Shown: positions 5,562 to 11,515, numbered from the stretch's first letter. The stretch is 64,000 nt of DNA from Candidatus Spongiihabitans sp. (GCF_965237845.1 NZ_OZ250154.1:2391228-2455227), one strand, 5' to 3'. Numbers and translations: made by a program. Notes: generated by a model from the sequence alone, not told the origin.

Positions 5562-5980
5562 TTATGTCTTTTTCACCAGTTTTCCAAGTTGATTCATTTT
5601 TCTGTTAAGAAGTCGCCGCTCTTTTAGCTGACACTCCCATATTCGCATTACTTTCCATCCTCTGTTTTTAACTGTGCTGGTTACCAATCTGTCACGTTTC
5701 TTGTTGGCATCTATCTTTCGAATCCAAACTCTCTGTTGCTTTCTGGAACCTCTCCATGTTTCGGACAACCATGCCAGAAACACCCGTCAATAAAAACCGC
5801 AATTTTGCTATTTGGAAATGCAATGTCTGGATTTCCAAAAAACGGATACCTACGCCGCCATCCCGTTAGGTGGTTCTGTTTCAACACTTCAATAAGTTTG
5901 CCTTCGGTTGATTTGTTTCCGGAGGACCAGACACGACTCATAAGCCATGAGCGTTTCTGTTGTGAAAAGACATCACCCAT
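5562..5980 (-). pseudogene. vsr: Very-short-patch repair endonuclease Vsr, split by a 1-nt deletion in an A/T run
   Basis: ORF 5711-5980 carries GNPDIAFPNSKIAVFIDGCFWHGCPKHGEVPESNREF. ORF 5562-5783 continues WIRKIDANKKRDRLVTSTVKNRGWKVMRIWECQL. The frames rejoin if ccaaactc (5724-5731) were ccaaaactc. Confidence 0.8.
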
Positions 5981-7637
5981 TCTTTTTTACATTATCCAAT
6001 CTATACAACAAAAATGAAACCAAACTTAGGATATTGAGACAATCATTTTCAATAAAAAGTTTGTTTAATATTTCTCTAGTTTCTTGAGATTCAGGATTCC
6101 TAAATGCCTGCATCAAACCAACTGAAAGAGATCTTTGACCATGTTGTATATTAATTTCTGTTTCACTGGAAAGTTTAGAGACTTGAAGTTTCGGATAGTT
6201 AGTGATTTCTATTTTTCCTTTTTTCTTTTCATATTTGAAATTAAAAGCCTGATTCATCAAATCTACACCTGACAATTGAAGATTGAGTTCCCTTTTCACT
6301 TTATTGTCGTAAACAACAGTTCCTTCTCTTGCCGCTTCTAAATATTTGCCACTTTTGTAGTCCTCATATAGCCTTTCCTTAATAAGTGGATGCAAGTTTC
6401 TCCAATGATAATAAGGATAAGGGGGTATAAGTTCTTTAAGTTCGGTGAATAATTCAACAGACTTGTCAGATTCTACTTCGGGAAGATCTTCAATAAGTTT
6501 TTTAATAAAAATCTCAAAGTTATTTTTCATATTCTCTGGCATGGATTTTTTCCAATCTTCTATGCCAACAGCACCAAGATTCTGGCTGACCTTTGCAAAT
6601 TTTTCATCTTTACGTTTTTTACGCCAATCCACTTGCACAAACTGAACGCACTGCCCAAGATACTTATGAAGTTCACTCATTTGTAAATGTCCCCAGTTAA
6701 GATTCTGTCTATTGGTGGAAATCACATCCTCAAGAAAATCCTCTATAAAGTCCACTTTTAACCATCCTGTCATATACGAAAAGAAGTGGCTGGATGTGCT
6801 ATCAGCAAATTGATAGGGGGTTTGTACAAGCTTGCCTCGGGCAAACAAAGAAATACCTCTCGAATCAAATCTTGGTGCAATGGGTTTTTCGGGTGTAATA
6901 ATTTTGCCCTGAATTTTGGCAACATGTTCATAATCTGATTCTATATCAGTAAAATCGTCTGGAAAATCCCAAGAAAATTCCTCGCCAAATGCGGAAAAGC
7001 GCATATCATTCGATAACGTTACCGCTTCCCCATCGTTACGACGTATGGTGACGGCAAAATCTTCTTCAAAAATAAAAAATCTCGCTATGCTACTAGCAAG
7101 CAATTCTTCCGAAAAATCAGATGCTCGATTTATATTTGTCAGTGTTATTTTAGTTCCTATGTCATCTCCTTCAACAATTTCATCGACCACTTCCGGGGTC
7201 ATTAGATATTTTCCTTCCGAGGAATTCATTAAATCATTCCAATCCATCGTAAAAATATTTCGCTTCTTTTGCTTAACAGTGTTTATGGTAATTGTCTGAA
7301 CAATCCCAAAAAATGAGAGCTTTCCCAAACCCTTTTTACCAATAACCTCCCGACCTCTATGAGTTATACCCTCTCCATCTTTTCTGCGATTGCGGCCAAT
7401 AATAAGAAATTTGTTATCAATATCATTAAATGACATACCCATACCGTTATCTTTTACAATAATTCTTTTCTCTCCAACATCATGTAACTCCACTTCCACT
7501 CTTGTTGCGTCCGCATCGTATGAATTAGATATTAACTCACTCAAAACCGGCGGCAGGGTTGAATACATCCGAATCCCAAGATGTTCTATAACCTTCGGGT
7601 CAAATGTCATCGTTAATTGTTTGTCGTTTTGAGACAT
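5973..7637 (-). CDS. GHKL (Bergerat-fold, MORC-like) ATPase with a C-terminal Hypoth_Ymh/TIGR02391-like domain
   Basis: N-box ELISNSYDADA, G1 box VKDNGMGM and G2 box GKKGLGKLSFFG. The C-terminus reads YKSGKYLEAAREGTVVYDNKV...GVDLMNQAF...LSVGLMQAFRNPESQ...NILSLVSFLLYRLD. It starts 9 nt after dcm and overlaps vsr by 8 nt. Confidence 0.7.
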   Translation of the reverse strand: MSQNDKQLTMTFDPKVIEHLGIRMYSTLPPVLSELISNSYDADATRVEVELHDVGEKRIIVKDNGMGMSFNDIDNKFLIIGRNRRKDGEGITHRGREVIGKKGLGKLSFFGIVQTITINTVKQKKRNIFTMDWNDLMNSSEGKYLMTPEVVDEIVEGDDIGTKITLTNINRASDFSEELLASSIARFFIFEEDFAVTIRRNDGEAVTLSNDMRFSAFGEEFSWDFPDDFTDIESDYEHVAKIQGKIITPEKPIAPRFDSRGISLFARGKLVQTPYQFADSTSSHFFSYMTGWLKVDFIEDFLEDVISTNRQNLNWGHLQMSELHKYLGQCVQFVQVDWRKKRKDEKFAKVSQNLGAVGIEDWKKSMPENMKNNFEIFIKKLIEDLPEVESDKSVELFTELKELIPPYPYYHWRNLHPLIKERLYEDYKSGKYLEAAREGTVVYDNKVKRELNLQLSGVDLMNQAFNFKYEKKKGKIEITNYPKLQVSKLSSETEINIQHGQRSLSVGLMQAFRNPESQETREILNKLFIENDCLNILSLVSFLLYRLDNVKKNG

Positions 7638-7646
7638 AGAATTGTT

Positions 7647-8690
7647 TCATACTGCACAAATGGACTGTGCTATTCTGTAAGCGAGTTGCGGTGGTACGGC
7701 ATTGCCTATTAGTTTGGAGGCGGCTGTTGAGCTTTCACACACAAAAATATAGTCTTTTTCGAATGTCTGTAATGTCGCGCCCTCTCTTAGAGACAATCCT
7801 CTATCCTCTTCCGGGTGGGTAAAACGGCCGTTGGAAATCCCGTTGAATCTTGTTGTAATGGTCGAAGAAGGTTTATTCCATCTCAACCTTCCGTAAACAT
7901 CTCTAAAAGAATCATCTTTGCCTTTGTAAGCCTTCAGTTGAAGTTCGGGGTCGTCTTTCCATGCCTTTCTCGTTCCGCCATTTTTGGGGGTCAGTTTAAC
8001 GCGTCTCAGATTTTTTTCGGATAAAGATGCAACTGTATCCATGAAATCAGTATCATCTATATGCCCGGCTCGAAGGGCGGGAAAACCATTATGGGTTCCG
8101 ATAAATTCTGCCAGAATCGATTCTTTTTCGGGTTTGGGAAAATTGATCGATTCGTTCATCCTGGAAGCAATCAAAACAAATCTCTTCCTGCTCTGAGGTA
8201 CCCCATAATCCTTGGCGTTCAAAATATTTTCGGTAATCACATGTCCTTTTTCTTTAAGTTTTTCGCAAAAATTATCAAGTCCGCTTTCCGCTTCTTTTCT
8301 TTTCATTCCGGGAACATTTTCTATAATAACATAGCCCGGATTATAGTAATAGACAAAGCGCCAAAAATCTTGAAGTAGCCCCTTGCTTCCTTCAGATGAT
8401 CTTCTATTGGTATTCAAAACGCTCCAATACTGGCAGGGACTACATCCTATAAAAACTAAAGAATCATCATTGCGTTTAACCCCGCACTTTTTTTCCAGAA
8501 ACGTACGGGGAAGTTTCTTTATATCTTTCAGAAAAAATCTAGTCTCAGGATGATTTTTCTCATATGTCTCCTTGCAATCTTCATCTATATCTATACCCGC
8601 AACAACTTTCACCCCGGCCATCTTCATGCCCTGCGTCATTCCGCCCGCACCGCAGAAAAAATCGACGGCTTTCAACAACTTGGCTGTCAT
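7647..8690 (-). CDS. dcm: DNA (cytosine-5)-methyltransferase
   Basis: Motif I FCGAGGMTQG, motif IV GCSPCQYWS, motif VI ENVPGM, motif VIII QSRKRFVLIA and motif X GNAVPPQLA. Confidence 0.93.
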   Translation of the reverse strand: MTAKLLKAVDFFCGAGGMTQGMKMAGVKVVAGIDIDEDCKETYEKNHPETRFFLKDIKKLPRTFLEKKCGVKRNDDSLVFIGCSPCQYWSVLNTNRRSSEGSKGLLQDFWRFVYYYNPGYVIIENVPGMKRKEAESGLDNFCEKLKEKGHVITENILNAKDYGVPQSRKRFVLIASRMNESINFPKPEKESILAEFIGTHNGFPALRAGHIDDTDFMDTVASLSEKNLRRVKLTPKNGGTRKAWKDDPELQLKAYKGKDDSFRDVYGRLRWNKPSSTITTRFNGISNGRFTHPEEDRGLSLREGATLQTFEKDYIFVCESSTAASKLIGNAVPPQLAYRIAQSICAV

Positions 8691-11035
8691 TTGTCACCGC
8701 CCAGTCTTTCAATTAGTGTTACCACATGAGCCGCAATTGCGGATGAGGCCAAACGTAAAACCTTGTCTTCGTCATAGTCTTCTTGTCTGCCGGAGTTTTC
8801 TTTTTCAGCATCATGGATCAGTTTTTTATACATCGCCAAAGTGAGAATACCAACACCGAATCTAAAACGGTGTCTAATAATCTCCCTTTTATCTTCGTCC
8901 CTTTCTCTTAAAACCAGATACAAAAGATATTTGTTGCCTTGGTTCACATATACTGTCAACTCCTCTCCCACAGAAACATGGCCGCCCGATTCTTCTGTAT
9001 AATTGTAGTTATCCCAATCTTCCATTTTCACCCATACAATGTCAGGAAAATTAAGGGAACGCTCCTTTTTCTTCCTTGTATTGGTTTTATCTCCGCCAGA
9101 ATTTGTGGTTGTTTTCTCTTCATTGGAAATTTTTATTGTTACATCGAAAAGTAAAGGAGTGGTTCTCTCTGGATTAGAATCATTGAAGCCAAACTGAACA
9201 GAAATTTCATCCTTCACTTTGGCATTTTCTGGAGGGCTTACCTTTATGCGAAATTTTCCATTACGCAGAGAACCTGAATTTGGTAGTACATCAGGCATTG
9301 GATGCAAAAATTTGCCCTGGTCGGCTTCTCTTATTAAATAGTCGTTTTGAGCATCCGTCTTACATACAATCCATCTGTAAGAATTGATGGGAATACTTTT
9401 TACGTCACCTTCCTCCAAGTTTGTTGGCTTTAAATATGTTGGAAACATTTTTCCTTCATATTTGTCCTCGCCTCCGGACGTTTGGACCGGCTCAACGACA
9501 ATATCCCCAGCATCAAAAAGCTCTTGAAGGTCGAGATTGTTTTTGACAAGATCGGAAAGGAATTCTTTACTGGATTCTTTCTCTATCTGTTCGCTCTGAC
9601 GACGTTTTTTTATTTCTCGCGCATATTTTCTGAGTTCTCTGTCCTCTCTCAGGGAATCTATAACGATTTCCTTTAATTCTCTCGTCAATTCTATTTGCGC
9701 CATTCTTTCCCTGTCCGGCTTAAACACGGCGGAGCGTGCCGTGTTGTCCATGGCATTACAGTCAATTTGAACAAGTAGATGGTTTCTTAGATCATCAAGT
9801 TGTGCCTTGCGCAATAAACTTGCTCTTTCCTTGGCTTGGGATTGACCGTTGATCGTGTAAAACATTCTGTAAGAGTAGTTGCGCAAATACTCCTTCATTT
9901 TGTCCAAGACAAAATAGGATATGCGAATAGTCCCCAAACTGCTATTTTCGGAATTCTCAGTCACGCCTTCAAAGTCGACTCGGCTTGTTTCGCCTTCTTC
10001 ATCATCAGATTTAAGCACTGTCTTCATACCGGAAAAAGTTCTTGGGGCTATACCTTCCGCCCTAAGGCCAACTTTTGTGGGCTTGGCATCAAAATCATAA
10101 AAACGAAGAGGCAAAGCACAGTCAATCAAACTTGTCGTGAGTGCGTCATACAATCCCAAATCAACATTACGGGAACCGGGGCCTATGTCATATTCATATA
10201 GTTTTACAACGCTGCCGCCATCTTTAACAACACCAATGTCCGCCCTGTCGTTGAAAGCTCTAATCTCATCAGCCTCAAAACAGGCAATTTCCCCATTGGG
10301 ACAGAAATACTCAACTACGGGCAGATCCTCCCCCTTGTGCGGACTCCGTACTCTTATTAGAGTCCATCCCCATAGGCCATCCGAATCGTCCAGGTTTCTC
10401 TTCGAGAGAATGAGTTTGTACATTCCACTCCTGATTTCCGCTCGGGTACAAAAAGTTATGGACCCGGTACTACCCATATTAAAACGCCCCTGAACAAATG
10501 GAATGCCGTCCTTGTTCTTCTCTCCGAGAGACAGAAAAGTCTTTTCAAAGTCTCCGTGATTTTGACCTTCACCAAAATCAACTATCGTGTAATTTGGGCA
10601 AGTGTCCCTTTTGGCTTTTCTTTGAATGCCTATCAAAACACTCTTTTCGGCCAATTTTGTCCTTTGCCCTTGACTTAACAGTGTTAATTTTCCTTCTTGA
10701 ACTTCGGGGAAAAAGAGCTTAACCGCTTCGCTCATGCTTTGGGGAACCGCTTCGCTCTCCAAATCCAGCCTCTTCTCCTTCGCCTTCCGCATGAGGATTG
10801 CGTCAATAGAATTAATAATCAGTTCCGCCAACGCACCGACAGGCTCGCTTGTTTGGACACCTACCCTGTCCCAATTCTTTTCAGCACCGCCGTAGGGTTT
10901 CCAATTCTTGTCATCGCTAAACTCGGATCGGCTTTTCAGAATTTCATTGACTTGTTCAGTGGAAAGCGCACGCAGGAAACCCTCCGCCGTTAACTTGGAA
11001 ATTTGGCTATTGGAAAACTTACCTGAATTAGTCAT
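8687..11035 (-). CDS. Large (782 aa) GHKL-like ATPase with about 500 aa of unrecognised C-terminal sequence
   Basis: N-box ALAELIINSIDA, G1 box IVDFGEGQ and G2 box GRFNMGSTGSITF. The rest has no motif I can name. Its stop overlaps the dcm start (ATGA, 8687-8690). Confidence 0.6.
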   Translation of the reverse strand: MTNSGKFSNSQISKLTAEGFLRALSTEQVNEILKSRSEFSDDKNWKPYGGAEKNWDRVGVQTSEPVGALAELIINSIDAILMRKAKEKRLDLESEAVPQSMSEAVKLFFPEVQEGKLTLLSQGQRTKLAEKSVLIGIQRKAKRDTCPNYTIVDFGEGQNHGDFEKTFLSLGEKNKDGIPFVQGRFNMGSTGSITFCTRAEIRSGMYKLILSKRNLDDSDGLWGWTLIRVRSPHKGEDLPVVEYFCPNGEIACFEADEIRAFNDRADIGVVKDGGSVVKLYEYDIGPGSRNVDLGLYDALTTSLIDCALPLRFYDFDAKPTKVGLRAEGIAPRTFSGMKTVLKSDDEEGETSRVDFEGVTENSENSSLGTIRISYFVLDKMKEYLRNYSYRMFYTINGQSQAKERASLLRKAQLDDLRNHLLVQIDCNAMDNTARSAVFKPDRERMAQIELTRELKEIVIDSLREDRELRKYAREIKKRRQSEQIEKESSKEFLSDLVKNNLDLQELFDAGDIVVEPVQTSGGEDKYEGKMFPTYLKPTNLEEGDVKSIPINSYRWIVCKTDAQNDYLIREADQGKFLHPMPDVLPNSGSLRNGKFRIKVSPPENAKVKDEISVQFGFNDSNPERTTPLLFDVTIKISNEEKTTTNSGGDKTNTRKKKERSLNFPDIVWVKMEDWDNYNYTEESGGHVSVGEELTVYVNQGNKYLLYLVLRERDEDKREIIRHRFRFGVGILTLAMYKKLIHDAEKENSGRQEDYDEDKVLRLASSAIAAHVVTLIERLGGDK

Positions 11036-11094: not shown

Positions 11095-11515
<421 letters not shown>

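Follow-up and report, generated by a model that had tools for sequence, protein, structure and literature searches.

The stretch of DNA analysed here, 64,000 nucleotides of Candidatus Spongiihabitans sp. (GCF_965237845.1, NZ_OZ250154.1:2391228-2455227; hereafter the window, from whose first letter all positions are counted), carries an island in which the gene for a C5-cytosine DNA methyltransferase, dcm, overlaps the gene for a 782-aa protein, referred to as G782. The locus raises the question of what this large protein contributes to the methylase, and whether it holds the effector of the island. An earlier reading of the window, made from the sequence alone (the sequence-only reading), had assigned the N-terminus of G782 to the GHKL ATPases, found no nameable domain in the following ~500 residues, and proposed that an effector, if the island had one, was most likely hidden there. 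We find that G782 belongs to a conserved family with a predicted two-domain ATPase module, linked in one of its two clades to Dcm, and that no nuclease can be recognised in its C-terminal part. Our preferred interpretation, to which we give about an even chance, is that G782 works as a dimeric, ATP-operated clamp or matchmaker, supplying the half of a Dcm-linked defence module that is not the methylase, and that it has no nuclease activity of its own.

The biochemical roles of GHKL+S5 ATPases encoded in methylase operons are still poorly understood (PMC8011034, 2021; bioRxiv 10.64898/2026.09.30.754977, Tiamat, 2026). The pair formed by this ATPase and Dcm offers a compact two-gene test case for how a nuclease-less ATPase could give a methylase a restriction-like partner, and the same question bears on the way in which eukaryotic MORC proteins read methylated DNA.

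G782 belongs to a conserved, unannotated family

The open reading frame (ORF) proposed at 8687-11035 was confirmed; it lies on the minus strand (11035..8687) and begins with ATG. Its TGA stop is placed inside the ATG of dcm, the two codons sharing the letters ATGA (sequence context ggtgacaaATGAcagcc, also given as gacaaATGAcagcc), exactly as first noticed, and on the basis of this overlap the suggested translational coupling of the two genes is supported.

To place G782 among published sequences, homologues were collected by several searches. A word-seeded search returned more than 516 full-length homologues, all labelled "hypothetical", and a scan of 1.84 billion representatives with a hidden Markov model returned 2,358 clusters (50% identity) at E<=1e-3 and 777 at E<=1e-30, nearly all with a length of 750-850 aa. 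Relatives were present in 471 species in a one-genome-per-species scan, ranging from Proteobacteria to Chloroflexota, Bacillota, Patescibacteria and methanogenic archaea. The ratio of nonsynonymous to synonymous substitution rates (dN/dS) between G782 and its close relatives is 0.09-0.16 overall, with values of 0.05-0.15 for the ATPase module and 0.1-0.3 for the stalk, Ig-like and C-terminal parts, and every domain is under purifying selection. Given the number of homologues and these ratios, a chance ORF is excluded and G782 is a member of a conserved family.

Searches of NCBIfam, PADLOC, PHROGs and PDB sequences (phmmer and profile) gave no match for the family. Since it is absent from these collections of families and from Pfam, it is passed over by genome annotation and by defence-system finders. 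By tblastn, phage records contained no match to G782, and plasmid records contained six, all "hypothetical protein".

Within its own lineage G782 has a homologue in only 4 of 41 related genomes, and those homologues are distant. Proteins 78-85% identical to G782 are found in metagenome-assembled genomes (MAGs) of Nitrospirales (Nitrospirota), Arenicellales and Thermodesulfobacteriota, among them sponge MAGs of Nitrospirota and Thermodesulfobacteriota. This patchy distribution in its own lineage, with proteins of such identity in other phyla, indicates that G782 was laterally transferred. The GC content of the cassette block is 0.32-0.43, compared to ~0.50 in the flanking hisD and murA.

Domain architecture and ATPase motifs

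To define the domains of G782 (Table 1), a full-length AlphaFold model (24 homologues in the input, pLDDT 77.5) and a second model of residues 524-782 (71 homologues, pLDDT 87.7) were analysed together with the conservation in 53 members of the family (alignment A2; 23-78% identity). A Foldseek search with the full model matched GyrB 43K, Hsp90 N+M, TRAP1 and Topo VI-B (E 1e-10 to 1e-8, 380-650 columns, Foldseek probability 1.00). The alignments cover 380-500 columns of GyrB 43K and Hsp90 N+M and so take in the S5 domain, with modest TM-scores of 0.35-0.45 per target; in the model this domain has the secondary structure beta-beta-beta-alpha-beta-alpha, and residues 352-437 are consistent with S5. 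These matches indicate that residues ~60-445 form a two-domain GHL ATPase module, and on its modelled fold G782 is a GHL-class ATPase with a Bergerat domain and an S5 transducer, as in MutL, MORC, Hsp90 and GyrB. The single Pfam match of G782, to HATPase_c_3 (E=7e-4, 20 bits), falls below the 25-bit cut-off, and among the 53 diverse members weak HATPase_c_3 matches were the only ones, in 7 of 53. Since the profile match stays below threshold, membership of the GHKL superfamily rests on motifs and fold.

The motifs are well preserved across the 53 members. Motif I, E-x3-N-x2-D, is represented by E71 (94%), N75 (100%) and D78 (100%); motif II, D-x-G-x-G, by the invariant D153, G155 and G157; the lid of motif III by the invariant G183 and G188 and by G191 (98%); and motif IV, G-(T/S)-x-(I/V)-K-L-Y, by G274 (98%) and the invariant K278. 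An N-terminal W45/N54 motif is also among the invariant or near-invariant positions. The GHKL N-terminus of the sequence-only reading is thus borne out by motifs I-IV and by the Bergerat fold, and the peptides on which it had relied are all found, ALAELIINSIDA at residues 68-79, VDFGEGQ at 152-158 and GRFNMGSTG at 183-191. Its statement that only the first 200-280 residues can be assigned holds for sequence profiles, which name nothing beyond, but not for fold searches, which extend the assignment to ~445 and name an Ig-like part.

In the S5 domain, N396-G397-Q398 are invariant or near-invariant, and R442, 44 residues past the N-G-Q strand, is invariant. In MutL, an N-G-R strand is followed ~41 residues on by a phosphate-sensing lysine (R266/K307), and by analogy with this spacing R442 is a plausible candidate for the phosphate-sensing finger of the S5 domain. 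As judged from these residues the ATPase machinery looks complete, and G782 presumably hydrolyses ATP. The S5 motif of MORC, G-h-x-h-h-p-x-x-R-h-l, was found by regular expression in none of the 53 members, even in relaxed form.

Outside the ATPase module, residues 1-59 might form a dimerisation strap. The charged coiled-coil-like stretch reported earlier is present (ELTRELKE...SSKE, 449-491) and is modelled as long charged helices between 449 and 506, while the beta-rich part corresponds to strands at 535-637 in both AlphaFold models. Residues 664-782 probably serve as a dimerisation or partner-docking module; in the Foldseek search, made with residues 524-782 as one model, they drew no match of their own.

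The C-terminal part and the effector question

The model of residues 524-782 showed no nuclease fold in Foldseek searches of PDB and BFVD, where it matched only generic Ig, cadherin, S-layer and BIG2 domains (E ~1e-4), and neither a nuclease nor a TIR domain was matched in Pfam (53 members) or by Foldseek. The conserved positions of this part are T560, D561, N564, Y566, R569, D619, W674, N698 and N701, several of the polar ones kept at 88-100% across both clades of the family. No column of the alignment holds a conserved histidine (maximum 74%, at position 400), and the only conserved acidic residues in the C-terminal 340 aa are D561 and D619; position 700 is Asp in 86% of the family, Gly in G782 and Gly or Ala in its close relatives. 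D561, D619 and R569, carried on the Ig-like domain, resemble no nuclease site known to us and may form a metal- or partner-binding loop.

An island effector hidden in the C-terminal ~500 residues is therefore not supported, given the lack of a nuclease fold and of a conserved histidine and the presence of just two conserved acidic residues. About 150 of these residues belong to the ATPase module, ~110 form the generic Ig-like domain, and the remainder are helices and linkers. The sequence-only reading had itself recognised no catalytic signature, and profile and fold searches likewise gave none beyond the ATPase module; in the models none of the newly named parts of G782 appears catalytic. It had pointed to conserved acidic or histidine residues and to structure searches as ways of locating an effector. 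The alignment did yield conserved C-terminal residues, two of them acidic, but no histidine column, and the structure search named the S5 domain and the Ig-like sandwich but no family of known function for the C-terminal part beyond generic Ig-like domains.

The conserved polar residues nevertheless raise an alternative in which G782 is itself a restriction endonuclease, with a novel catalytic site in the C-terminal Ig-like/helical module (for example T560-D561...N564...R569, D619 and N698/N701) that is driven or licensed by the GHKL ATPase, in parallel with the BbrUII/HgiDII enzymes, in which a GHKL domain is joined to PD-(D/E)XK. Such GHKL-nuclease fusions partnering Dcm do exist, including a BbrUII-family enzyme in this same genome (730 bits, PDDEXK_4-like C-terminus). 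Moreover, two-gene loci of G782 and Dcm offer no other candidate for the restriction function, many members of the second clade stand alone, and a handful of polar C-terminal residues is conserved in both clades. We consider this alternative unlikely: beyond the absence of a nuclease fold, a profile match and a conserved histidine, the two lone acidic residues, and the replacement of D700 in this subclade, hhalign to the BbrUII enzyme finds nothing past motif II, and the family has no hypervariable folded domain for reading different targets, though its methylases differ widely (33% identity).

Gene context across the family

To examine the neighbourhood of G782 homologues, ORFs were called in 80 loci, and the neighbours were clustered and the clusters named with Pfam. 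A tree of 71 full-length members shows two clades, the first of which comprises 38 rows, the window included. Dcm is encoded within three genes in 33 of these 38 rows, and on the tree the Dcm-linked label requires a single change, with a support of 100. The link is kept across different layouts (G782-Dcm, G782-Vsr-Dcm and divergent Dcm/G782), and the partner methylases themselves are far apart, with 33% identity between Dcm types.

Of the 33 Dcm-linked loci, 20 also have Vsr, and in several (L012, L016, L017, L018) vsr overlaps the stop of the G782 gene by 4 bp. In E. coli, MutL stimulates Vsr, and the S5 strand of MutL, F-V-N-G-R, is resembled by F-Y-T-x-N-G-Q in G782. Together with the MutL-like GHKL+S5 layout, these observations would fit a role as a repair accessory, in which G782 would be a MutL surrogate acting with Dcm and Vsr and helping the Vsr nickase to find or process the T:G mismatches that arise from deamination of 5-methylcytosine. 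We regard this role as very unlikely, since in 13 of the 33 loci linked to Dcm no Vsr is encoded within three genes, the other clade has N6_N4 methylases, PIN proteins or nothing but no Vsr, vsr is broken in the window while G782 is kept, and distant members lie in defence islands (GmrSD, type I restriction-modification, ProA/Hhe, SIR2, DUF262).

The neighbour of dcm in the window encodes a second GHKL protein of 554 aa, G554, with a HEPN-like C-terminus. Its homologues occur in 12 of the 80 loci, dispersed over the Dcm-linked clade, and its own, much larger family, which numbers at least 2,679 proteins under the annotation "TIGR02391 family", is also found in (Vsr)-Dcm-G554 arrangements that lack G782. 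The pairs G782+Dcm and Dcm+G554 are therefore two modules that can occur apart and have a single methylase in common in this island. The GHKL-HEPN protein is not a fixed part of the cassette but an optional addition.

Three neighbours recur in the second clade: an N6_N4 methylase (9 loci), a VapC-like PIN protein encoded directly upstream (9 loci) and a translationally coupled 340-aa protein (7 loci). The remaining loci have nothing recurrent and often lie amid GmrSD, type I restriction-modification, ProA/Hhe-like helicases, SIR2 and DUF262. The PIN loci (L025, L047, L057, L058, L060, L063, L064, L066, L073) span several phyla, the PIN gene lying 12-181 bp upstream or overlapping, and in three of the nine it is preceded by a MazE/AbrB-like gene. 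The VapC-like protein may act as a partner nuclease, or the island may simply carry it as an addiction module.

The gene for the ~340-aa protein (L042, L049, L051, L053, L055, L059 and L077, including Methanoregula) precedes that of the G782 homologue; the two overlap in five loci and are 12-27 bp apart in L055 and L077. The protein has no database match. Judged by eye, its alignment suggests an N-terminal helical/RHH-like and a C-terminal winged-helix-like part, as in a DNA-binding protein and not a nuclease. In L051 and L059 an unnamed 403-406-aa protein is also encoded after the ATPase gene.

Proposed role of G782

Under the clamp or matchmaker interpretation, G782 and the co-translated Dcm would be the conserved core around which a horizontally mobile cassette resembling a restriction-modification system is built. 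Dcm would mark the host DNA and the G782 ATPase would act on unmarked DNA, which would be cut by a separate, exchangeable partner or inactivated without cutting. The candidate partners in this type of cassette are the GHKL-HEPN protein G554 and the Vsr-family nuclease. ATP hydrolysis, dimerisation, DNA binding, a defence role and the choice of a cutting partner, if there is one, are all properties that we infer for G782.

Several observations weigh against this proposal. At least seven loci (L011, L014, L015, L019, L020, L022, L023) contain G782 and Dcm only, with no candidate partner nuclease nearby. The window has damaged copies of both candidate partners next to an intact G782, and the ATPase may therefore do without them. 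Many second-clade members have no linked methylase, and the core activity of the family therefore cannot depend on Dcm. Profile and fold searches identified no DNA-binding domain in G782, and the members of the family are known from sequence and predicted structure alone.

The same observations fit an alternative in which G782 works without any nuclease, by MORC-like ATP-dependent clamping, compaction or topological trapping of unmethylated DNA that blocks its replication or expression. The layout of a GHL clamp, with its stalk, its dimerisation-like C-terminal module and its lack of a nuclease, the frequent reduction of the core to G782 and a methylase or to G782 alone, and the purifying selection on G782 here despite damage to both neighbouring nucleases all speak for it. 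To our knowledge, however, no such mechanism is known in prokaryotes; the S5 motif that defines MORC is missing from the family, DNA binding by G782 is presumed, and for G782 we give this alternative little probability. For the family as a whole, the corresponding view is that of a nuclease-free, ATP-driven DNA clamp that alone excludes unmethylated foreign DNA by entrapment or compaction, a bacterial and archaeal counterpart of MORC silencing, which seems to us distinctly improbable; the Dcm mark would then be the self signal in one clade, and the stand-alone clade would discriminate by other means. All three alternatives, the cryptic nuclease, the repair accessory and nuclease-free trapping, are kept alive by the loci with G782 and Dcm only, by the stand-alone members of the second clade, and by the damaged partners beside a conserved G782.

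Comparison with known systems

Iyer, Abhiman and Aravind predicted in 2008 that MORC and paraMORC1-5 proteins, which combine GHKL and S5 domains, occur in restriction-modification-like operons with cytosine methylases and Vsr, and proposed that they act like the ATPase modules of MutL and topoisomerases, reorganising DNA-protein complexes in conjunction with separate nucleases (PMC2292703). The helicase-less operons described there contain MORC, a methylase and a second GHKL protein, paraMORC1, with a distinct C-terminal extension, a layout that matches G554-Dcm-G782, with G554 carrying a near match to the MORC S5 motif (GISLFARGKLV). G782 is best read as belonging to this class, as a paraMORC-class GHKL+S5 protein, the comparison with paraMORC1 being by description only. 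Like paraMORC, G782 has intact GHKL and S5 domains, occurs in operons with a cytosine methylase and Vsr, and has a patchy, laterally transferred distribution.

The family differs from MORC in lacking its S5 motif (0/53), and the features that define paraMORC2 (ExxxH in S5), paraMORC3 (RE-fold/DUF4263), paraMORC4 (TIR) and paraMORC5 (HxH C-terminal domain) are absent. The Ig-like and helical C-terminal module of G782 is not described in PMC2292703. The roles of the prokaryotic MORC and paraMORC families in that study are predictions, as is the role proposed here for G782.

With regard to other GHKL proteins, G782 shares with MutL the GHKL+S5 module, a linker, a C-terminal module and a similar N-G-(R/Q) strand in S5. 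MutL acts as a matchmaker for nucleases other than itself, which it activates (MutH, and Vsr in E. coli); its C-terminal endonuclease motif is DQHA(X)2E(X)4E. G782 gives no MutL profile match, lacks the dimerisation/endonuclease domain of the MutL C-terminus and shows no conserved histidine or matching acidic cluster, and it differs further in the inserted Ig-like domain and in its link to a methylase on a mobile island.

The BbrUII/HgiDII enzymes (NF050001) are, like G782, large GHKL proteins encoded beside and overlapping a C5 methylase. Unlike G782, they possess a PD-(D/E)XK-like domain at the C-terminus; G782 does not match NF050001, and hhalign of its family against the true member in its own genome gave a probability of 0.7%. 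Within the island, the relative of these enzymes is G554, in which the nuclease domain is replaced by the HEPN-like Ymh domain.

Topo VI-B of M. mazei has a C-terminal Ig-like domain, and its order of GHKL domain, transducer with a long helix and Ig-like domain is that of G782. The Foldseek alignment spans ~650 columns (E ~3e-9 to 1e-8), yet the global TM-score is only ~0.3. In G782 no H2TH domain was recognised, no gene for a Spo11/Toprim A subunit lies nearby, and the context is a methylase island.

Tiamat and GHKL-Shedu (paraMORC3/VcSduA) are single-gene phage-defence GHL/GHKL ATPases, some encoded beside methylases (bioRxiv 10.64898/2026.09.30.754977; PMC12137116). They carry C-terminal PD-(D/E)xK nucleases, Tiamat also DUF3684/TPR-like folds, whereas G782 has no nuclease, and with regard to catalogued defence proteins, Tiamat included, G782 matches none of the PADLOC-DB families. 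As for the restriction-modification class in general, the methylase link of G782 is observed, and an attack on unmodified DNA is what we propose.

The island in Candidatus Spongiihabitans

Table 1. Genes of the island and predicted domains of G782, with positions in the window
Feature	Position	Strand	Description	Basis
G782	8687..11035	minus	782 aa, ATG start, GHL-type ATPase, unannotated family	ORF and translation
G782 residues 1-59	10859..11035	minus	N-terminal helices and motif NWKPYGG..KNWD (W45 invariant)	Alignments, model secondary structure
G782 residues 60-300	10136..10858	minus	GHKL (Bergerat) ATP-binding domain, motifs I-IV	Conservation, Foldseek, Pfam HATPase_c_3
G782 residues 301-445	9701..10135	minus	S5-fold transducer, FYTxNGQ (N396, G397, Q398), R442	Foldseek, secondary structure, conservation
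G782 residues 446-508	9512..9700	minus	Charged helical stalk, helices 449-463, 466-487, 490-498, 501-506	AlphaFold model
G782 residues 509-530	9446..9511	minus	Disordered variable linker	pLDDT below 50, variable alignment columns
G782 residues 531-641	9113..9445	minus	Ig-like beta-sandwich, loop T560-D561-A-x-N564-D-Y566-x-x-R569, plus D619	Domain pLDDT ~95
G782 residues 642-663	9047..9112	minus	Disordered Lys/Thr-rich linker	pLDDT 30-45
G782 residues 664-782	8687..9046	minus	Beta-hairpin/helix unit (664-700; W674, N698, N701), then long helical hairpin 714-777	Models, conservation
dcm	7647..8690	minus	C5-cytosine DNA methyltransferase, start overlaps G782 stop	Pfam DNA_methylase 5.5e-57, TIGR00675
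G554	5973..7637	minus	554 aa, HATPase_c_3 (1e-23) and C-terminal Hypoth_Ymh (HEPN-like, 1.7e-16)	Domain matches
vsr remnant	5586..5974	minus	Split over two reading frames near 5714-5729	tblastn with the Vsr of L007, frames -1 and -3
hemB (ALAD) 3' fragment	11095..11409	minus	Directly upstream of G782	Pfam ALAD 2e-20

By domain matches, one effector-type domain alone can be recognised in the island, the HEPN-like Ymh domain of G554. Its HEPN motif reads RNPESQ in place of RNPxxH, with Q518 encoded by CAA at 6084-6086 on the minus strand, a single base change from a His codon. Of 116 aligned homologues 115 have the histidine, and only this copy has Gln. Since the catalytic histidine is replaced, this site is probably dead here. 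The copy of vsr is frameshifted, while G782 and dcm are intact. The change of the HEPN histidine and the frameshift in vsr together point to ongoing decay of the cassette's downstream half, and the island is thus half decayed, with the ATPase and the methylase preserved and the HEPN site and vsr damaged.

G782 and G554 are not close paralogues by BLASTP, and hhalign of the G782 family profile with a 771-aa protein encoded beside another G554 locus showed no relation. The first 400 residues of G554 resemble the BbrUII/HgiDII enzymes (NF050001, 222 bits, below the cut-off). The true member of that family in this genome (730 bits, as above) is encoded outside the window (G000:C1:2272649-2277556, L088); it combines HATPase_c_3 with a weak PDDEXK_4 C-terminus and has an overlapping Dcm gene upstream and an N6 methylase gene downstream. 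By this comparison G554 is built on the scaffold of that enzyme, a HEPN-like domain taking the place of the nuclease domain.

The DNA of the window is collinear with L002, L004 and L008 from 11358 down to ~5420, including the hemB fragment at ~77% DNA identity. An intact hemB (ALAD, 336 aa) lies directly upstream of the cassette in L002 (5931-6941), and an ORF of the same cluster occupies that place in L004 (5928-6938). From this collinearity, either the cassette came with ~325 bp of a donor hemB, or the 3' end of hemB was its landing site. In a scan for promoters and terminators, sites were no more frequent than by chance.

At 11381-11515 on the minus strand there is a short ORF with a PP-loop-like N-terminus (MNKPHIVKFSGGRSSG) that stops after 43 codons. 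It was considered as a part of the cassette and rejected, having no counterpart in any related locus. Genes of the PAPS-reductase family are found near two distant plasmid homologues of G782 (L081, L082).

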